From Octopus vulgaris (Eukaryota): DNA of 64,000 bases. The notes under the pieces were generated by a model. It was not told where the DNA came from. It was given only the letters and a program-made list of their open reading frames with translations, and ran no database searches. The stretch's first letter is position 1. Each line of letters opens with the position of its first letter. The stretch covers positions 28,830,001-28,894,000 of the forward strand of contig OX597814.1 in assembly GCA_951406725.2 (NCBI GenBank). The letters are read 5' to 3'. Both the position numbers and the translations under genes were made by a program. This document shows positions 4,722-56,650 of the stretch, piece after piece.

Positions 4722-5010
4722 GTGCCACACACACACACACACACACACACACATTATCAATATTTTTTGGGAATTTATTCTCTAGTTTTTCTCAAATTTT
4801 TCCAAAGTTTCCACTTAATTTTCTCTCGTTCTCTTCTCTTCCTAAACTCGTGGGTTCATTTTTCGCGTTTTATCCTCCTTTCTCTTTTTCTCCTTTTCTC
4901 TTATAAGTTTTGTGTAAGTCTCTGTCACATTCCTCTCGCCATTCCACGTGCCTCACTTAATTTCCTCTATAACAGAACTATTTGTTTGTACCAATAGAGT
5001 ATTGCACTCT
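4370..5010 (+). repeat. Tandem duplication (~360-bp period, including a CA tract)
   Basis: 4395-4653 is repeated at 4753-5010. Confidence 0.85.
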
Positions 5011-5178
5011 CTCCTCTCTTGCTCATAATCTATTCCACTGCGTCTCAGCCCTATATCCTTACAGACACTTTTATCAGCCAACCCCACATTACTCTCGTCT
5101 TCACATTTGCATCCGTTTTACTTCAAATTTGCAACACTTCTCACCTTACTTCCAAATTTCCTTACACTCAAAGATTAT

Positions 5179-5262
<84 letters not shown>

Positions 5263-5326
5263 TGTCTATCTAAAAAAAAACACGGATATACTTCAATATA
5301 CTTCAATATACTTCAATACACAGAAT

Positions 5327-5457
5327 TCGAATTCCGCCGAGGTCGACTTTGCCTTTCATCCTTTCGGGGTCGATAAATAAAGTACCAGTTTCGCACTGGG
5401 ATCGATGTAATCGACTTAATCCCTTTGTCTGTCCTTGTTTGTCCCCTCTATGTTTAA
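5327..5457 (+). mobile_element. SINE family A fragment
   Basis: Matches the family body. Confidence 0.75.
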
Positions 5458-6339
5458 ATCTCCATCTGGCCCCTAATCCTTCGTCCGTTGCTTTTTCTCT
5501 TTTCAACTAATTTTCCTCTTTCACACGTCTTTAATTTACTTCTTTACTTTTCTTCTGATGAAAGTCAAGCGTCCAAAATGCTATGACTCTTTTCTCGTCA
5601 AGTTAAATAATATATTTGATAAATTTAATTTAACGACCTTTTACTTATATTAGTTCAATACTTGATTCAGTACAGCCGTTGCTCTGCGTTTCTTGCTTTT
5701 ATATGTTCCTTTAAAATCTAAATGGACGAACTGGTTTAGGCTCTTCCACCTAATCCGTAACCGACATGGGGCCGACAGGAAACACTCTGAAAAAGTATGT
5801 GCACCAATGCAATAGTTTTTTTTTTCACGCCACTATCTCCTAAAACTTGACATCGCTAGCCAGTCACATCTGGCAATCTAACGATAGTGAAGTAAATGCA
5901 ATCCTCACAGGGGAAATTATAAGCAAAGTATTTGCGCTTAAGAACGGATCTAAACCCCACAAATTGTGCATCGCAGTAAAGCTCTACATCATCTCCCATC
6001 CCTCCTGAATCCTAAATAAACACTCGATGTTATCTCAATTTACCAATTTTAGCCGATAAACTCCTTAAAAGAGCTTGGTAGCTGTTAAAAGAGCTTGGTA
6101 GCTTTGACTACTTTTCTCGTCAAGTTAAATAAATAGTAAAATTAAATAATTTAACGACCATTTAACTATATTAGACTACTTGATGAGTGTGGTTGACTGT
6201 GAATTCAATTGCTCGAAGTCTTCGGGCATGAAGTAATCCTGTTTATTCATATAGAATTTATGTGTGTGTGTATGTGTGCGTGTGTGTTTATATATATTTG
6301 TGTGCGTATGTGTATGTATATATAAATATATACATGTAT

Positions 6340-6413
<74 letters not shown>

Positions 6414-7071
6414 CAACCTAGCTAGCTGTATGTACATGTACGTATGGATATGTATATATACACCGAAGTATATGTGAATAAAGTGTTCGGAAATATGTCG
6501 AAGATATTTTTCGTGTAAAACCATTTGGCATAATATTCGAGAAAAATTAATTTATTCATGTCTAGTGCAAATAATGAAATTAAATGAAATGATAGTTAAA
6601 ACGAAACGAGCATAGAAAATAAAACTGTCTTACGTATTTAGGTAAATACATGCATACATTAAACATATCTCTACGGGCACGAGCTTGTGTTTTTACATAT
6701 TCGGAAATTCAGCTGGCCGAAGAAGAATTAGAGAGACTGTTTAGAGTGGAGGAGGAAAAGAGAGAACTAAAAGTCGAAATAAAGGAAAGAAAATTAAAGG
6801 AGACGGTGTATGGTATTACGTAATCTACCCGAAGAATATTGAAACAGAGAAGAAAATACTCAAGTTCAACCAAATAGTAAGAGTAAAGGTACCAACATAT
6901 GCAGAGGACATGAAGGCGATAGTAATTGAAGAGGAAAGTTATAAGAGACTGCAAGAAATGTGTGGAGATAATATTGACCCATCAGGAGTAAGGGTGGAAT
7001 TCAAAGAATTGCCACCTTTAGTGGATTTAGTAGAAATCGAACCACCGTTATGCCTGGTTGTAATATGCAGT

Positions 7072-7459
7072 GTGGAGGCGCAATGGCCCAGTGGTTAGGG
7101 CAGCGGACTCGCGGTCGTAGGATCGCGGTTTCGATTCCCAGACCGGGCGTTGTGAGTGTTTATTGAGCGAAAACACCTAAAGCTCCACGAGGCTCTGGCA
7201 GGGGATGGTGGTGATCCCTGCTGTACTCTTTCACCACAACTTTCTCTCACTCTTACTTTCTGTTTCTGTTGTACCTGTATTTCAAAGGGCCTGCTTTGTC
7301 ACTCTATGTGTCACGCTGAATATCCCCGAGAACTACGTTAAGGGTACACGTGTCTGTGGAGTGCTCATCCACTTACACGTTAATTTCACGAGCAGGCTGT
7401 TCCGTTGACTCGGATCAACCGGAACCCTCGTCGTCGTAACCGACGGAGTGCTTCCATCC
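7072..7459 (+). mobile_element. tRNA-derived SINE family B, with TSD
   Basis: A box TGGCCCAGTGG, B box GGTTTCGATTCC, TSD AATATGCAGT. Confidence 0.9.
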
Positions 7460-19851: not shown

Positions 19852-21972
19852 TTAGTTGGTGTGTGTATTAGTATGGCACATCATATGTGATGTGATGTGT
19901 AAAGTCATGTGGTGTAGTGAGGAGAAGAGGGGGAGGGGGAGAAGAGGGGAGAGAAGGGGAGGGGAAGAAGAGGGGGAGGAGAAGGGGAGAGGAGAGGATG
20001 GGGGAGAAGGAAGGGGATGAGGGGGATGAAGGAGGAAAGAGGGAGAGGGGGAGAGAGAAGGGGAGAGAGGGAGTGAGGGAGCAGAGGGAAGGGGAAGAGG
20101 GAGGGAGAAAGAGGGAAGAAGGGAAGGGGAGTAGGGGTGAAAGGATGAAGGACTGAAGAAGTAGGGGTCGGGGGGAGAAAGGATAGGTGAGGAGGGGGGA
20201 GGGGGGTTAGATGAGGAGGGGGGAGAGTTGAGACCAAATGGCGTATAAGAGCGAAGAGAGAAGATTAATTCCTGTTCACGGCGCAAACGGGAATCCGGAT
20301 GGCCTCTGTGTAAGGACAAACCGAACACAGATAGGTGTTGCAAGGAGTGACCGGTGGAGCGGAAATGGCGTGAGACCGGTGTGTCGTTCGCAAGGTGGAT
20401 GTCACGAAGGTGTTCCGCGAACCGGTCAGCCAAGCGGCGTCCCGTTTGTCCGATGTACAAGGAATTGCAGAGGGAGCAAGAGATGCAATAGATAATATTG
20501 CTGGAGGTGCAGGTGAAGGAGTGGATGATGGGATAGGGTCGATGGTGGGTGCTAGTGAGGCGGGTGGTGTTGGAGAGGTAAGGGCAAGTGCGGCAACGTG
20601 GGCGGGAGCAGGGGAACGAGCCGGGTTGGGAGGTAGGGTCAGGGAAGGAGCTATGGACCAAAAGGTCTCGAAGGTTGTGGGCTCGTTTGAAAGAGGGGAG
20701 GGGTCGGTTAGGGAAGAGGTGTGAAGTGGACGGGTCGGACTGGAGATGACGGAAAGCTCGAAGAATGGTGCGTTGGAGACGTAGGGTCGTGGGGTGGTAA
20801 GTGAGGGGAAAAGGGAGGCGGGAGACTACAGGGCGGGTTCGGGGAGAGAGAGCAGATACACGGTCCACGGACCGTGCTCTGGCAAGGGCGGTGTGGATAG
20901 TGGTGAGGGGGTATCCACGTAGGGTGAAGTGGTGAACCATACGTTGAGACTGAGTCTCAAAGTCATGGTCGTCACTACAGAGCCTACGTAGACGAAGGAA
21001 TTGGGAATAGGGGATGGAAAGCTTGGTGTGTTCTGGGTGGGAGGAAGAGAAGTTGAGGTAGGAGTGTGAGTCTGTGTGTTTGTAGTGAATGGAGGTGGTA
21101 AGAGTGGAGTGAAGAATGCTAACCGAAATGTCGAGGAAGGAGACAGAGGTGTTGGAGATAGTGGAAGTGAAGTGGAGGGCTGGATGGAAAGATTGAACGA
21201 AAGAGAGGAAGGAATCTAGATGTTCGCGGGAGAGTGAGGTGGCACCGATAATGTCGTCAATATAACGACCATATAGTTCAGGAGTGGGACCAGTGAAATT
21301 AGAGAATATTTGGGCCTCAACATAGCCAACGAACAGGTTCGCATAGTTGGGGCCCATTCGCGTTCCCATGGCCACTCCCGAGACCTGATGGTAGAACTCG
21401 CCCGCGAACGAGAAGCAGTTCAGAGTAAGGACAAGTTCGGCCAGACGAATGAGTGTGGAGGTGTCAGGTACAGGGTTAGAGCGGAGGTCAAGAAAGTGTC
21501 GAAGGGCCTGCAGTCCTTCGTGGTGAGGGATAACAGTATAGAGGCTTTGGATGTCCATAGTAAAAAGGATTTTGGAGGAGCCGGGAGGAAAGGAGAAAGA
21601 GTTGAAAAGCCGGAGAGCATGGTTGGTATCGTGGATGTGGGAGGGAAGAGATGTCACTAGGGGGGCAAGGACACGGTCGAGGTATTTAGAGATGAGCTCC
21701 GTGGAGCAGTTACAGGCGGAGACGATGGGGCGGCCAGGGTTGTTGGGTTTGTGGATTTTGGGGAGGAAGTAAATGGTGGGGGTACGTGGGGTTCGCACAA
21801 TTAGGTTGGATGCGGTGCGGGGGAGACGGGAGGACGAGATGAGGTCTTGGACAGTAGAGGATACCGTCTGTTGGTAGCTACGTGTGGGGTTAGAGGGCAG
21901 AGGGGAATAGAAGGAGGTGTCATTGAGTTGGCGGAAAGCCTCGGCCCTATAGAGGTCCGCGCGCCACACCAC
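19852..21972 (-). CDS. Penelope-like reverse transcriptase / GIY-YIG endonuclease (N-terminally truncated; C-terminal ~120 aa is CT-rich read-through)
   Basis: RT motifs: PGRPIVS, MDIQSLYTVIPH, GVAMGTRMGPNYANLF, YGRYIDD, SFLD. Cys linker: CSRPRCRTC. Endonuclease: IYCISCSLCNSLYIGQTGRRLADRFAEH...FGLN. Confidence 0.93.
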   Translation of the reverse strand: MVWRADLYRAEAFRQLNDTSFYSPLPSNPTRSYQQTVSSTVQDLISSSRLPRTASNLIVRTPRTPTIYFLPKIHKPNNPGRPIVSACNCSTELISKYLDRVLAPLVTSLPSHIHDTNHALRLFNSFSFPPGSSKILFTMDIQSLYTVIPHHEGLQALRHFLDLRSNPVPDTSTLIRLAELVLTLNCFSFAGEFYHQVSGVAMGTRMGPNYANLFVGYVEAQIFSNFTGPTPELYGRYIDDIIGATSLSREHLDSFLSFVQSFHPALHFTSTISNTSVSFLDISVSILHSTLTTSIHYKHTDSHSYLNFSSSHPEHTKLSIPYSQFLRLRRLCSDDHDFETQSQRMVHHFTLRGYPLTTIHTALARARSVDRVSALSPRTRPVVSRLPFPLTYHPTTLRLQRTILRAFRHLQSDPSTSHLFPNRPLPSFKRAHNLRDLLVHSSFPDPTSQPGSFPCSRPRCRTCPYLSNTTRLTSTHHRPYPIIHSFTCTSSNIIYCISCSLCNSLYIGQTGRRLADRFAEHLRDIHLANDTPVSRHFRSTGHSLQHLSVFGLSLHRGHPDSRLRREQELIFSLRSYTPFGLNSPPSSSNPPPPSSPILSPPDPYFFSPSSFHPYSPSLLPSFSLPLPLPSAPSLPLSPSLSPSPSFLLHPPHPLPSPPSSPLPFSSPSSSPPLLSPLLPLPLFSSLHHMTLHITSHMMCHTNTHTN

Positions 21973-21989
21973 TACAGCTCCACCCTTTA

Positions 21990-22367
21990 CTAGCAGTATC
22001 GCCCGGCGTTGCTCGGGTTTGTTTCGACCCTTTAGAATTGGAATTTTTGAAAAGTAAAAATTTTGCGTTATGTAGCTTGTTATTCTCTTTAAGTGAACAT
22101 TTTTCCGATTAAAATTCAGCGAAAAATGACGACACAGCAGCAGTCAAAAAATCGTAAAAAATAGGGATTTTCATAGAAAAAAGCACCTTTTTGATGTAAA
22201 TAATTTTTGGTGTTAGCATGGTCCGATTTGAATTTTTTTCTTCTACGGAAGTAAGATCAAGCCTTCTTCTATCATCCTCTCAATTTTGGTCAACTTGTGC
22301 CGCAGGGTCTCGGAGGAGATAGTGTTAGTTGAAGGCTACCAAACTTGCCACACACAGACAACTTCAG

Positions 22368-29688: not shown

Positions 29689-32023
29689 TTAGCGTCCGTT
29701 TTCCATGCTAGCATGGGTTGGACGGTTCAACTGGGGTCTGGGGAGCCCGAAGGCTGCACCAGGCTAGTCAGATCTGGCAGTGTTTCTACAGCTGGATGCC
29801 CTTCCTAACGCCAACCACTCCGAGAGTGTAGTGGGTGATTTTATGTGCCACCGACACAGGTGCCAGACGAGGCTGGCGAACGGCCACGCTCGGATGGTAT
29901 TTTTATGTGCCACCGACACAGGTGCCAGACGAGGCTGGCAGACGGCCACGCTCGGATGGTGTTTTTATGTGCCACCGACCCAGGTGCCAGATGAGGCTGG
30001 CGGACGGCCACGATCGGATGGTGTTTGTTACGTCCCCAAAGCACGGAGGCCAGTCTATGCGGTACTGGCTACGGCCACGTTCGGATGATTTTCTTGTGTG
30101 CCACCGGCACTGGTCCACAAAGATACAAATTCCATTGATGTTCATCTATTTTGATTTGTTTTGATTTGATTTGATTTTCACTTGCCTCAACAGGTCTTCA
30201 CAAGTGTCACAAGAAGGAAGGTATGCACAGGTGGACTGACTACGTCCCAGGTAGGGGCCACGGGTTATGGCCTGACTAGTCTTGCCGGGTCTTCGGATGG
30301 TGTTTTTATGTGCCACCGACACAGGTGCCAGATGAGGCTGGCGAACGGCCACGATCGGATGGTGTTTGTTGCGTGCCCACAGCACGGAGGCCAGTCGATG
30401 CGGTACTGGCTACGGCCACGTTCGGATGGTTTTCTTGTGTGCCACCGGCACTGGTACCACAAGATACAAATTCCATTGATGTTCATCTATTTTGATTTGA
30501 TTTGATTTGATTTTCACTTGCCTCAACAGGTCTTCACAGGTCTTCACAAGTGTCACAAGAAGGAAGGAAGGTATGCACAGGTGGACTGACTACGTCCCAA
30601 GTAGGGGCCATGGGTTATGGCCTGACTAGTCTTGCCGGGTCTTCGGTTGGTGTTTTTATGTGCCACCGACACAGGTGCCAGATGAGGCTGGTGGACGGCC
30701 ACGATCGGATGGTGTTTGTTATGTGCCCACATCACAGAGGCCAGTCGATGCGGTACTGGCTACGGCCACGTTCGGATGGTTTTCTTGTGTGCCACCGGTA
30801 CTGGTACCACAAAGATACAAATTCCATTGATGTTCATCTATTTTGATTTGGTTTGATTTGATTTGATTTGATTTTGATTTTGATTTTCACTTGCCTCAAC
30901 AGGTCTTCACAAGTGTCATAAGTAGGAAGGTATGCACAGGTGGACTGACTACGTCGCCGGGTCTTCGGATGGTGTTTTTATGTGCCACCGACACAGGTGC
31001 CAGATGAGGCTGGCGAACGGCCACGATCGGATGGTTTTCTTGTGTGCCACCGGTACTGGAACCACAAAGATACAAATTCCATTGATGTTCATCTATTTTG
31101 ATTTGGTTTGATTTTCACTTGCCTCAACAGGTCTTCACAAGTTTGGTTTGATTTTCACTTGCCTCAACAGGTCTTCACAAGTGTCACACGTGTCACACAC
31201 TTGCCTCAACACGTCTCCACAAGTGTCACACACTTGCCTCTGCCTCAACAGGTCTTCACAAAGTGTCACACACTTGCCTCTGCCTCAACAGGTCTTCACA
31301 AGTGTCACACACTTGCCTCAACAGGTCTTCACAAGTGTCATAAGAGGGAAGGTATGCACAGGTGGACTGACTACGTCGCCGGGTCTTCGGATGGTGTTTT
31401 TATGTGCCACCGACACAGGTGCCAGATGAGGCTGGCGAACGGCCACGATCAGATGGTGTTTGTTGTGCCCACAGCACGGAGGCCAGTCGATGCGGTACTG
31501 GCTACGGCCACGTTCGGATGGTTTTCTTGTGTGCCACCGGTACTGGAACCACAAAGATACAAATTCCATTGATGTTCATCTATTTTGATTTGGTTTGATT
31601 TGATTTTTGATTTTCACTTGCCTCAACAGGTCTTCACAAGGGTCACACACTTGCCTCAACAGGTCTCCACAAGTGTCACACACTTGCCTCTGCCTCAACA
31701 GGTCTTCACAAGTGTCACACACTTGCCTCAACAGGTCTTCACAAGTGTCATAAGAGGGAAGGTATGCACAGGTGGACTGACTACGTCGCCGGGTCTTCGG
31801 ATGGTGTCTTTATGTGCCACCGACACAGGTGCCAGATGAGGCTGGCGAACGGCCACGATCGGATGGTGTTTGTTGTGCCCACAGCACGGAGGCCAGTCGA
31901 TGCGGTACTGGCTACAGCCACGTTTGGGTGGTTTTCTTGTGTGCCACCGGCACTGGTACCACAAAGAATACAATTCCACTGATGTTCATCTATTTTGATT
32001 TGTTTTGATTTGATTTGATTTTC
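29661..32023 (-). mobile_element. Non-autonomous RTE-related (SINE-like) element with a (TGA)n tail and a hierarchical internal tandem expansion
   Basis: 3' end GGTTGGCGTTAGGAAGGGCATCC...(TGA)n. It contains ~59-bp sub-repeats, ~250-490-bp macro-units, and ~30-37-bp hairpin repeats. Confidence 0.7.
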
Positions 32024-32107
32024 AGATAGATACATTTAAGACAGATTAATAGGAATCGATAGGGTAATTAAAGAACGTCTTCCAAGTCTAATTGAAAAAA
32101 GAAAATA

Positions 32108-52396: not shown

Positions 52397-52551
52397 ATAT
52401 ATATATATATATATATATGTTTGTTCCACGTCCTCGCGTTGTGTTTTTTGTGCTTTCTTGTTTGGATTAACTTTATAAATATATATATATGTATATCTAT
52501 ATATATATAGAGATATATATTTATAGTTATATTGATATATATATGTATATG

Positions 52552-52583
<32 letters not shown>

Positions 52584-52714
52584 TAAATATATCAACAATC
52601 AAGGAACGGCCATAATAGGCCATTCACCCACTAGAAATAACAGCCAAAGCTTCAACCGCAAATAAAAATTAATTCCGTAAACCAGGAGAAAATTTAAAAA
52701 ACATTTACCCTGTA

Positions 52715-52821
52715 ATTTCTTATACGATGTACCGTTTCATCTGCTGATTAATGGTAAACTAACCTGATTAAATTAAATCAAGCCAATCTTCCAAAGGCCC
52801 TCAGATTCTTCAGTAAGAAAT
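52715..52821 (-). ncRNA. Type I hammerhead ribozyme, copy 1
   Basis: ATTTCTTA-CTGAAGA-ATCTG...CAGAT-GAAA-CGGTACATCG-TA/TAAGAAAT. It has an 8-bp stem I, an intact core, stem II, stem III and a GUA cleavage triplet. Confidence 0.9.
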
Positions 52822-53206
52822 AGCCCAAGTCGGAACAGATATTTTCACGAGGCATTTCCGACCTTGCCAAGGTTATATCTGACCTAAAATTTTCAAATCG
52901 TCGCACTCGCGCCAAATTTATCGGCAGCAAATAAATATAAGCCGTCGATTCCATTACGGAATTAACCAGAAAATTCATAATTAATCAATATAGGGTGGCA
53001 AAAAAAATTTTGTAGAATTTTTTTGCCACCAGCGGCCTAGTGGGAAAAAATTAAATAGTCATAGACCATTTTTAAGTTCAACATCAACATTCAAGGAACG
53101 GCCATAATAGGCCATTCACCCACTAGAAATAACAGCCAAAGCTTCAACCGCAAATAAAAATTAATTCCGTAAACCAGGAGAAAATTTAAAAAACATTTAC
53201 CCTGTA

Positions 53207-53313
53207 ATTTCTTATACGATGTACCGTTTCATCTGTTGATTAATGGTAAACTAACCTGATTAAATTAAATCAAGCCAATCTTCCAAAGGCCCTCAGATTC
53301 TTCAGTAAGAAAT
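53207..53313 (-). ncRNA. Type I hammerhead ribozyme, copy 2
   Basis: Same motif, 492 bp further along. Confidence 0.9.
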
Positions 53314-53698
53314 AGCCCAAGTCGGAACAGATATTTTCACGAGGCATTTCCGACATTGCCAAGGTTATATCTGACCTAAAATTTTCAAATCGTCGCACTC
53401 GCGCCAAATTTATCGGCAGCAAATAAATATAAGCCGTCGATTCCATTACGGAATTAACCAGAAAATTCATAATTAATCAATATAGGGTGGCAAAAAAAAT
53501 TTTGTAGAATTTTTTTGCCACCAGCGGCCTAGTGGGAAAAAATTAAATAGTCATAGACCATTTTTAAGTTCAACATCAACAATCAAGGAACGGCCATAAT
53601 AGGCCATTCACCCACTAGAAATAACAGCCAAAGCTTCAACCGCAAATAAAAATTAATTCCGTAAACCAGGAGAAAATTTAAAAAACATTTACCCTGTA

Positions 53699-53805
53699 AT
53701 TTCTTATACGATGTACCGTTTCATCTGCTGATTAATGGTAAACTAACCTGATTAAATTAAATCAAGCCAATCTTCCAAAGGCCCTCAGATTCTTCAGTAA
53801 GAAAT
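53699..53805 (-). ncRNA. Type I hammerhead ribozyme, copy 3
   Basis: Same motif. Confidence 0.9.
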
Positions 53806-54190
53806 AGCCCAAGTCGGAACAGATATTTTCACGAGGCATTTCCGACCTTGCCAAGGTTATATCTGACCTAAAATTTTCAAATCGTCGCACTCGCGCCAAA
53901 TTTATCGGCAGCAAATAAATATAAGCCGTCGATTCCATTACGGAATTAACCAGAAAATTCATAATTAATCAATATAGGGTGGCAAAAAAAATTTTGTAGA
54001 ATTTTTTTGCCACCTGCGGCCTAGTGGGAAAAAATTAAATAGTCATAGACCATTTTTAAGTTCAACATCAACAATCAAGGAACGGCCATAATAGGCCATT
54101 CACCCACTAGAAATAACAGCCAAAGCTTCAACCGCAAATAAAAATTAATTCCGTAAACCAGGAGAAAATTTAAAAAACATTTACCCTGTA

Positions 54191-54297
54191 ATTTCTTATA
54201 CGATGTACCGTTTCATCTGCTGATTAATGGTAAACTAACCTGATTAAATTAAATCAAGCCAATCTTCCAAAGGCCCTCAGATTCTTCAGTAAGAAAT
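54191..54297 (-). ncRNA. Type I hammerhead ribozyme, copy 4
   Basis: Same motif. Confidence 0.9.
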
Positions 54298-55239
54298 AGC
54301 CCAAGTCGGAACAGATATTTTCACGAGGCATTTCCGACATTGCCAAGGTTATATCTGACCTAAAATTTTCAAATCGTCGCACTCGCGCCAAATTTATCGG
54401 CAGCAAATAAATATAAGCCGTCGATTCCATTACGGAATTAACCAGAAAATTCATAATTAATCAATATAGGGTGGCAAAAAAAAAATTTTGTAGAATTTTT
54501 TGCCACCACGCCAGTGGAAAAAATTAAATAGTCATAGACCATTTTAAGTTCAACTCAACAATCAAGGAACGGCCATTAATCAATATAGGGTGGAAAAAAA
54601 AATTTTGCCTAGTGGGAAAAAATTAAATAGTCATAGACCATTTTTAAGTTCAACATCAACAATCAAGGAACGGCCATAATAGGCCATTCACCCACTAGAA
54701 ATAACAGCCAAAGCTTCAACCGCAAATAAAAATTAATTCCGTAAACCAGGAGAAAATTTTAAAAACATTTACCCTTTGGAAGATTGGCTTGATTTAATTT
54801 AATCAGGTTAGTTTACCATTAATCAGCAGATGAAACGGTACATCGTATAAGAAATTACAGGGTAAATGTTTTTTAAATTTTCTCCTGGTTTACGGAATTA
54901 ATTTTTATTTGCGGTTGAAGCTTTGGCTGTTATTTCTAGTGGGTGAATGGCCTATTATGGCCGTTCCTTGATTGTTGATGTTGAACTTAAAAATGGTCTA
55001 TGACTATTTAATTTTTTCCCACTAGGCCACTGGTGGCAAAAAATTCTACAACATTTTTTTTGCCACCCTATATTGATTAATTATGAATTTTCTGGTTAAT
55101 TCCGTAATGGAATCGACGGCTTATATTTATTTGCTGCCGATAAATTTGGCCCGAGTGCGACGATTTGAAAATTTTAGGTCAGATATAACCTTGGCAAGGT
55201 CGGAAATGCCTCGTGAAAATATCTGTTCCGACTTGGGCT

Positions 55240-55346
55240 ATTTCTTACTGAAGAATCTGAGGGCCTTTGGAAGATTGGCTTGATTTAATTTAATCAGGTT
55301 AGTTTACCATTAATCAGCAGATGAAACGGTACATCGTATAAGAAAT
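55240..55346 (+). ncRNA. Type I hammerhead ribozyme, copy 5 (predicted cleavage after 55338)
   Basis: Stem I 55240-55247 pairs with 55339-55346; CTGAAGA at 55248-55254; GAAA at 55323-55326; GTA at 55336-55338. Confidence 0.9.
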
Positions 55347-55731
55347 TACAGGGTAAATGTTTTTTAAATTTTCTCCTGGTTTACGGAATTAATTTTTATT
55401 TGCGGTTGAAGCTTTGGCTGTTATTTCTAGTGGGTGAATGGCCTATTATGGCCGTTCCTTGATTGTTGATGTTGAACTTAAAAATGGTCTATGACTATTT
55501 AATTTTTTCCCACTAGGCCACTGGTGGCAAAAAAATTCTACAACATTTTTTTTGCCACCCTATATTGATTAATTATGAATTTTCTGGTTAATTCCGTAAT
55601 GGAATCGACGGCTTATATTTATTTGCTGCCGATAAATTTGGCCCGAGTGCGACGATTTGAAAATTTTAGGTCAGATATAACCTTGGCAAGGTCGGAAATG
55701 CCTCGTGAAAATATCTGTTCCGACTTGGGCT

Positions 55732-55838
55732 ATTTCTTACTGAAGAATCTGAGGGCCTTTGGAAGATTGGCTTGATTTAATTTAATCAGGTTAGTTTACC
55801 ATTAATCAGCAGATGAAACGGTACATCGTATAAGAAAT
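55732..55838 (+). ncRNA. Type I hammerhead ribozyme, copy 6 (predicted cleavage after 55830)
   Basis: Same motif, 492 bp after copy 5. Confidence 0.9.
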
Positions 55839-56265
55839 TACAGGGTAAATGTTTTTTAAATTTTCTCCTGGTTTACGGAATTAATTTTTATTTGCGGTTG
55901 AAGCTTTGGCTGTTATTTCTAGTGGGTGAATGGCCTATTATGGCCGTTCCTTGATTGTTGATGTTGAACTTAAAAATGGTCTATGACTATTTAATTTTTT
56001 CCCACTAGGCCGCTGGTGGCAAAAAAATTCTACAAAATTTTTTTTGCCACCCTATATTGATTAATTATATATAAATATATATATATATAAATATATATGT
56101 GTATAAGCATATATATATATTTATAAATATATACACATATATATATGTATATATATATATGTGTATATAAATATATGTATGTATATAAATATGTATATAT
56201 AAGTATATATATGTTTATATATGTATATATATATATATGTATATATGCATATATATATGCATATG

Positions 56266-56298
<33 letters not shown>

Positions 56299-56650
56299 GT
56301 ATATATATATGTATATGGGCAGCGCCTTGAAGAATTTTTATTCGAGTGAATCGACCCCAGTACGTTTTTTAAAATGATTTTTAAAATGTACTACATAGTA
56401 TATCGGTTCTTTTGCCGAACTGCTAAGTTACGGGGATGTAAACACTACTGGTGAAGGACAAGCACCTATGCACACGCACACACACACATACACACACACA
56501 CAGATATGCGACAGGTTTCTTTTAGTTTCCGTCTACTAAATACACTCACACGGCTTTGGTTGGCTAGAGGTTATAGTAGGAGACACTTTCTCCAAGGTGC
56601 AATGCAGTGGGACTGAATCTGAATCAATGTGGTTAGGAAGCAAGCTTCTT

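Follow-up and report, generated by a model that had tools for sequence, protein, structure and literature searches.

The 64-kb window (the whole stretch of octopus DNA analysed here) contains two arrays of a 492-bp unit arranged head-to-head, the left on the minus strand and the right on the plus strand. When the unit is numbered so that position 1 is the base after the predicted GUA cut, the left arm (52591..54775, minus strand) spans about 4.4 units from a 3′ end at unit position 132 (start site A) to a 5′ end at position 12, without the first 11 nt past the predicted cut; the right arm (54773..56068, plus strand) spans 2.6 units from a 5′ end at unit 418, inside stem II, to a 3′ end at position 238 (start site B). 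The arms meet at 54773..54775 in a 3-nt microhomology, CCT, that joins unit 12 to unit 418, and the outer 3′ ends of both adjoin (TA)n target microsatellites, at 52474..52592 on the left (TRF and sequence) and 56066..56316 on the right (TRF). The start-site A motif TTGATTnnTnAT (unit 121-132; 52591..52602, minus strand) lies past a predicted hairpin, and the 106-nt "tail" between start sites A and B occupies 55963..56068 on the plus strand, with a 13-bp hairpin at 56015-56051 and the B motif at 56057-56068. Mapping the arms thus bears out an earlier note on this DNA, which had joined them at CCT, with the left arm starting 11 nt past the predicted cut, and had both outer 3′ ends running into (TA)n. 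Its prediction that a transcript could fold back into more than 1 kb of dsRNA is also upheld at the level of base pairing, as the arms would pair with each other over 1,294 bp at 99.15%.

The insertion is flanked by a 14-nt interrupted-TA direct repeat (left copy 52579..52592, including an AT shared with the element end; right copy 56067..56080; both plus strand), which is likely a target-site duplication. Interrupted-TA duplications of 14-16 nt were found at 5 of the 91 inverted loci described below, against 0.47 expected from mismatched flank pairs; of 13 loci whose TA tract is interrupted close to an end, 9 had no matching duplication. Elsewhere in the window there are further tandem arrays with 350-bp and 410-bp periods (29952-30955 and 31198-32024) and, at 20347-22104 on the minus strand, the remnant of another Penelope-type element with 28% identity over 646 columns to the 781-aa protein discussed below; a strict hammerhead scan of the 64 kb revealed no other hammerhead family.

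The full unit core has the form of a type I hammerhead: CUGAAGA, a stem II region of about 73 nt, GAAA, a short stem III, and GUA. Six complete cores are present in the array, and the core at the junction is without its CUGA half. Four predicted hammerheads lie on the minus strand, at 52715..52821 (cut after A 52723; core motif and folding), 53207..53313 (cut after A 53215; one stem II change), 53699..53805 (cut after A 53707; core motif), and 54191..54297 (cut after A 54199; core motif); two lie on the plus strand, at 55240..55346 (cut after A 55338) and 55732..55838 (cut after A 55830), both identified by core motif and folding. The catalytic fold of 55732..55838 has a predicted energy of -28.1 kcal/mol, 1.7 kcal/mol above the minimum of -29.8. 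Among the cores matched by our pattern, CUGANGA, GAAA, and NUH are retained in 249 cores comprising 59 distinct sequences. A search of the whole window with Rfam at gathering thresholds returned no match; the hammerhead call is made from core motif and folding. The unit is non-coding (longest stop-free frame 68 codons), has a GC content of about 35% and no LTR, and contains no RT or GIY-YIG ORF; neither of the two Penelope-like element (PLE) proteins considered below (781 and 842 aa) matches the array. Folding z-scores of -4.69 for the plus strand and -4.73 for the minus strand do not pick out a strand. We conclude from its sequence that the 492-bp repeat is a non-coding hammerhead repeat, a retrozyme, for which self-cleavage is predicted.

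The two main stem III variants are two changes apart and both keep a self-complementary 10-mer, with duplex energies of -13.6 and -17.5 kcal/mol; the stem III lineage of the window (23 cores, 5 loci) breaks the 10-mer palindrome, and the corresponding value is -7.1 kcal/mol. Within the window the palindrome is lost at 54838-54847 and equivalent positions, as it is at loci of groups C6, C12, and C14. The five-locus lineage has 4.6 cores per locus compared with 2.8 for the others (p=0.064), a tendency toward longer arrays which we do not claim as a result. Dimeric hammerheads have been described for amphibian retrozymes (PMC7229834).

Immediately left of the junction the array is rearranged: at 54502..54607 (minus strand) the sequence jumps from unit position 180 to 203, and then from 235 back to 110, adding about 100 nt, and there are 7 single-base losses within 54502-54555. 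The indel-rich stretch that the earlier note marked at 54480-54610 is accordingly a real irregularity of the assembled sequence. Given that similar internal jumps are present at other loci, a genuine template switch may account for the jump, and assembly error for the single-base losses. Among the contig pieces of public runs listed for 54430-54900 and 54725-54825, none spans the junction or the rearranged stretch; such contigs break in the repeat and are uninformative either way. The neighboring single-base losses, typical of poor polishing, are what might lead one to suspect that the inversion itself is an assembly or library artefact such as a fold-back chimera. We regard this as extremely improbable: the junction is asymmetric (12 versus 418) and the arms differ in alleles; moreover, the outer ends follow the 132/238 rule of 86 of 91 loci, and the 14-nt duplication flanks the locus.

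Paired ends across the genome

The genome assembly (2.8 Gb, 227 contigs) contains at least 231 unit matches, a figure derived from the 40 of 1,032 candidates that were scored, and 2,503 matches to the hammerhead core pattern. The 132 end joined to TA has 237 exact genome matches and the 238 end joined to TA has 681, with none for either control. We mapped 120 loci in three sets: the window locus and 39 other top-scoring loci; 60 loci found through the 132 end, drawn consecutively from the 100 listed first among its 237 matches; and 20 loci found through the 238 end, drawn from those listed first among its 681 matches. The second and third are referred to below as the end-anchored sets. As parsed, 91 of the 120 are head-to-head (33/40, 45/60, and 13/20 by set), and 4 further single-arm loci have a tiny opposite 238 end; tail-to-tail arrangements were absent from all 40 loci of the first set.

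The two outer ends differ, and they do so in the same way nearly everywhere. In 86 of the 91 inverted loci one end falls at 124-137 and the other at 229-244; the remainder comprise 4 loci with one end elsewhere and L038, called mixed by our script, whose core has the 238 end on both sides, a separate piece with the 132 end lying 0.5 kb away. (Rows dropped were stray matches in L118, L125, and L128, and L038.) In the two end-anchored sets, the end that had played no part in the selection lay at the opposite start site in 44 of 45 and 12 of 13 cases. Both start sites end in TTGATTnnTnAT, which has no third match in the unit, and at both sites the motif lies 10-17 nt past a predicted hairpin. One end near 132 and the other near 238 is the "inverted copy plus tail" signature of Penelope elements. 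The earlier note had missed that the outer ends represent two different fixed start sites, one per side.

Junctions are of two kinds. Inserted bases replace an overlap in 40 of the 91; among the 51 overlap-type junctions, microhomology of at least 2 nt occurs in 34 (versus 18% for random joins) and of at least 3 nt in 19 (versus 6.5%), an excess that may be slightly inflated, since the observed values are BLAST overlaps and the null is exact matching. The 3-nt overlap of the window locus is typical of the family, and its junction is ordinary within that family rather than a local oddity. The family statistics, together with the flanking 14-nt duplication, favor the earlier proposal of two-sided priming at a (TA)n break with the 5′ ends joined by microhomology. 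At another locus, L036, both arms of an inverted array have an internal 132 end and captured TA-rich flank, as if an earlier insertion and its flank had been re-transcribed and then re-inserted.

Where the arms stop and how many templates they record

A first test of junction positions, in which 11 of 66 ends lay within 12 nt of the cut, was set aside: the query began at the cut, with possible sampling bias, and the end-anchored sets were used instead. In those sets 38 of 136 arms have 5′ ends at unit 5-30, compared with 8.3 expected from exposure; junctions in other arrays, on which the earlier note proposed to check its reading, are thus non-random with respect to the predicted cleavage site. 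Stops at unit 5-37, an interval picked after looking at the data, account for 35 of 116 first passes but 8 of 53 later passes (Fisher p=0.038). The two arms of an insertion also tend to share the same fate at the cut: in 27 insertions both crossed it, in 19 neither did, and 10 were discordant (p=2e-6). The stop excess is largest on the first pass. We infer two template classes: cut linear RNA, which gives short inserts, and templates without an end at that point, either circles or uncut multimers. Stops near the cut in later passes are still above the 5% background (p=0.005), an excess that a pure circle would not give and that counts against the explanation we prefer. The 5′ hairpin and T run near the cut could also stall reverse transcriptase. 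Among short inserts stopping at unit 22-23 there are often stuttered T/A-run insertions at the joint (L085, L088, L091, L099, L100, L105, L107, and L117), which suggests that the T run close to the cut end was re-primed more than once.

The 11-nt offset to which the earlier note drew attention therefore has a mixed standing: it fits the stop peak of the family, but the left arm of the window stops at position 12 on its fifth pass, which places it in the weaker, later-pass class, where the excess is modest once a ribozyme has already been crossed. The position of this particular junction may be partly chance.

Whether the two arms were copied from one RNA or two can be approached in several ways. 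Specifically, i) on a linear template coordinate, the stopping points of the two arms coincide to within 30 nt in 24 of 51 end-anchored insertions, where the permutation mean is 6.4 and none of 20,000 permutations reached the observed value (the comparison leaves out 9 loci with internal jumps); ii) away from the cut, 11 of 34 are co-terminal versus 1.5 expected; iii) unit divergence is 0.45% within arms, 0.52% between arms (Wilcoxon p=0.19, n=43), and 3.1% between loci; and iv) rare alleles are fixed in both arms 32 times (at 16 loci) and in one arm only 0 times, a count that omits 305C of the window, which is present at 3 loci. On the strength of the co-terminal arms and of one haplotype across both arms, one RNA was likely copied twice. 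Two limits apply. The nearest unit at another locus is a median of 0.41% away, as close as the two arms are to each other, so that a shared haplotype alone is compatible with two RNAs from one donor; and none of 28 arrays is co-terminal in the first set of long top-scoring arrays, which includes the window locus, so that the case for one RNA is best for short inserts.

The alternative, in which the two cDNAs of the earlier note are taken to have had two templates, so that each protomer of a dimeric enzyme carries a separate RNA and each RNA is primed from one side, seems to us rather unlikely. A dimeric model has been published for the Penelope-like element PAc (PMC11167929), the self-complementary stem III 10-mer of both main variants would fit RNA dimers, the long arrays show neither co-terminal arms nor a correlation in arm length, and the window locus has arm-restricted alleles; but two independent RNAs would not be expected to end together at varied places away from the cut, or to leave no fixed rare allele that distinguishes the arms, or to give equal divergence between and within arms when subfamilies differ by up to about 10%.

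A single priming event followed by a fold-back or U-turn, in which the first cDNA turns back on itself, by self-priming or by a template switch, and copying proceeds along it until the structure is resolved by the endonuclease at the second site, would also yield two arms with one haplotype. Self-priming has been proposed for Penelope inversions (PMC3846280), near-perfect palindromic junctions away from the cut are present at L086, L129, and L142, and the right arm of the window locus could fit inside the longer left arm. We nevertheless judge a fold-back unlikely: in 17 of 79 insertions (10/51 and 7/28) neither arm is long enough to contain the other, and in 17 of the 24 co-terminal cases the 132-arm extends further 5′ than the 238-arm, which is the wrong sign for fold-back of a 238-cDNA unless the product was trimmed later.

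The arm-specific alleles of the window locus require separate comment. CTCGCGCC is carried by all 4 of the left units that extend across its position and CTCGGGCC by both of the right units that extend across its own, so that the earlier note was correct that the arms are not a simple mirror; as evidence for two templates, however, these variants are weak, being near-private to this locus. The alleles 182A, 206C, and 305C are each known from only 2-3 loci and are confined to the two full right units, the terminal one lacking them; this sharing of three near-private alleles makes the locus atypical. In the left arm, 352T alternates among units. We think these alleles are better read as post-insertion mutation with local duplication, or as polishing cross-talk. 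The two right units and the alternation at 352 could also be cited in favor of a broader proposal, that short insertions were later expanded to arrays by unequal crossover or slippage, in which case multimers would be uninformative about a circular template; local amplification has been suggested in bioRxiv 10.64898/2026.07.22.740005. For the family we find this very unlikely: expansion needs a repeat from which to start, and an arm of less than one unit has none; many arms are 1.0-1.9 units long, their 5′ ends scattered; and at positions covered by at least 4 units rare alleles occur as 108 singletons, 15 partial, and 10 fixed.

Candidate enzymes and a proposed mechanism of insertion

A GIY-YIG search identified a young Penelope-type family with a 781-aa RT and GIY-YIG protein that inserts in (TA)n. 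Its copies end at either of two sites about 35-38 nt apart, and 2 of 2 inverted copies pair one site with the other; neither sequence similarity nor an end motif common to the 781-aa PLE and the 492-bp unit was found. The family (L170-L185; for example L173:3568-5004 and 4926-7268, plus strand) has a two-frame organization, with an upstream 479-aa frame that has no Pfam match, and a hammerhead is present near L161 and L171 but not in L173.

Outside the 492-bp family, the end motif has 99 matches (control 9), and among the 30 inspected several other hammerhead families end in the motif. At L200-L229, at least three unrelated hammerhead-bearing families end in TTGATTnnTnAT ahead of (TA)n; one of these sets of loci (L209, L211, L214-L216, and L218) also resembles, by eye, the sequence upstream of start site A.

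An abundant Penelope-type element with an intact 842-aa frame (L272-L287, for example L273:2878-5403, plus strand; also L242-L261) was recognized among 150 scored of 17,680 candidates. It carries a type I hammerhead with a palindromic stem III loop, and its ends lie in (TA)n at about 41 and 112-118 nt past its own cut, some 71-77 nt apart; 15 of 16 inverted copies pair the two kinds of end. The protein has no real match in Pfam; it is called an RT by its alignment to the 781-aa RT (E=1e-8), and its GIY-YIG-like end by motifs read by eye. We therefore put forward the 842-aa element as a candidate driver of the retrozyme, on its end geometry and a short motif. Among the PLE families compared, no autonomous element with extended similarity to the 492-bp unit was found. 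Against the 781-aa and 842-aa families, the search for a pLTR homologue of the unit yielded nothing more than a short end motif of the 842-aa element, which is TTGAT(T/C)AATT-like; a short-stem-II version of the unit's hammerhead, such as a pLTR might carry, had 0 matches; and with a wider hammerhead pattern, the 100 matches listed of 2,422 were the 492-bp retrozyme family.

Taking these observations together, we consider it likely that the head-to-head insertion was made by a Penelope-type RT-endonuclease, with priming from both ends of a cut (TA)n tract, at 132 and 238 of what was probably a single RNA. The enzyme would cut the (TA)n tract with nicks staggered by about 14-16 nt; each DNA end would then prime its own cDNA, the two starts being at unit positions 132 and 238; both cDNAs would run toward the RNA 5′ end, and their 3′ ends would be joined by microhomology to give the inversion. 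Linear RNA cut by the ribozyme would account for the short inserts, which are common and end at 5-30 nt from the cut, and circles or uncut multimers, which have no end there, would give multi-unit arms like those of the window locus. At that locus the left cDNA would have passed through four ribozyme sites before halting 11 nt away from a fifth, and later point mutation with local unit duplication would likely have produced the arm-specific alleles.

A stronger version of this mechanism strikes us as possible but doubtful: double priming on one RNA would be obligate; each staggered (TA)n end would be tied to its own fixed start; the cDNAs would copy overlapping template, with strand displacement and no RNase H; both would roll on a ribozyme-made circle; and the 842-aa element would drive the process by reading the TTGATT-type end motif common to unrelated ribozyme families.

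Relation to known retroelements

Twin priming in L1 likewise produces two target-primed cDNAs joined head-to-head by microhomology, but there the position at which the second primer anneals, upstream of the first cDNA, varies. In the octopus family neither start varies, and the stretches of template copied by the two cDNAs overlap.

The closest relatives in composition are the metazoan non-LTR retrozymes (PMC7229834; bioRxiv 10.64898/2026.07.22.740005), which share with the octopus family a GC content of about 35%, a non-coding tandem organization with one type I hammerhead per unit, and thousands of dispersed copies alongside autonomous Penelope-like elements; mobilization of retrozyme circRNA by PLEs has already been proposed in both sources. 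The octopus unit is 492 nt, compared with 170-400 nt (PMC7229834) and 51-972 bp (bioRxiv 10.64898/2026.07.22.740005), and unlike those retrozymes it has a stem II extended to about 73 nt and no pLTR homologue that we could find. The passages of these two papers that we consulted describe neither head-to-head arrays nor fixed paired ends, and the word "inverted" is absent from PMC7229834. More generally, we found no description of head-to-head retrozyme arrays in a literature represented by main texts without supplements and with thin coverage of subscription journals.

The closest relatives in insertion structure are the endonuclease-bearing Penelope-like elements, whose inverted, 5′-truncated copies have a tail at one end and target microsatellites (PMC3846280, PMC8557442). 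The octopus family resembles them in its head-to-head arrangement, one-end tail, target-site duplication, (TA)n preference, and microhomology joints; it differs from them in having a 106-nt rather than a 30-40 nt tail, no ORF, both arms multimeric, and a near-strict one-site-per-end rule that can be quantified. For PAc (Poseidon, from the green anole), an in vitro study found that two internal RT start sites define the tail and that both strands are cut and then extended (PMC11167929). PAc and the octopus family thus have paired internal starts and an AT-rich target in common, but the octopus sites are 106 nt apart, unlike those of PAc; octopus copies pair the sites one per side, whereas PAc showed no start-site difference between strands in vitro; and many octopus 5′ ends lie just past a predicted ribozyme cut, whereas the PAc assay used uncut RNA (PMC11167929).

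We conclude that the family is a retrozyme with a Penelope insertion footprint: inverted, with a tail at one end, in a (TA)n target that shows a duplication at 5 of 91 loci. PMC8557442 calls the origin of the tandem and inverted structures of Penelope-like elements an open problem. The octopus family, which is young, non-coding, and legible at hundreds of insertions, provides a quantitative footprint of the process, consisting of two fixed starts with one on each side, co-terminal arms, and stops at the ribozyme cut. The short RNA and the candidate enzymes make a double-priming mechanism testable in vitro. If double priming did prove to be obligate and both cDNAs to roll on a ribozyme-made circle, retrozyme arrays would be genomic records of two-polymerase rolling-circle reverse transcription.
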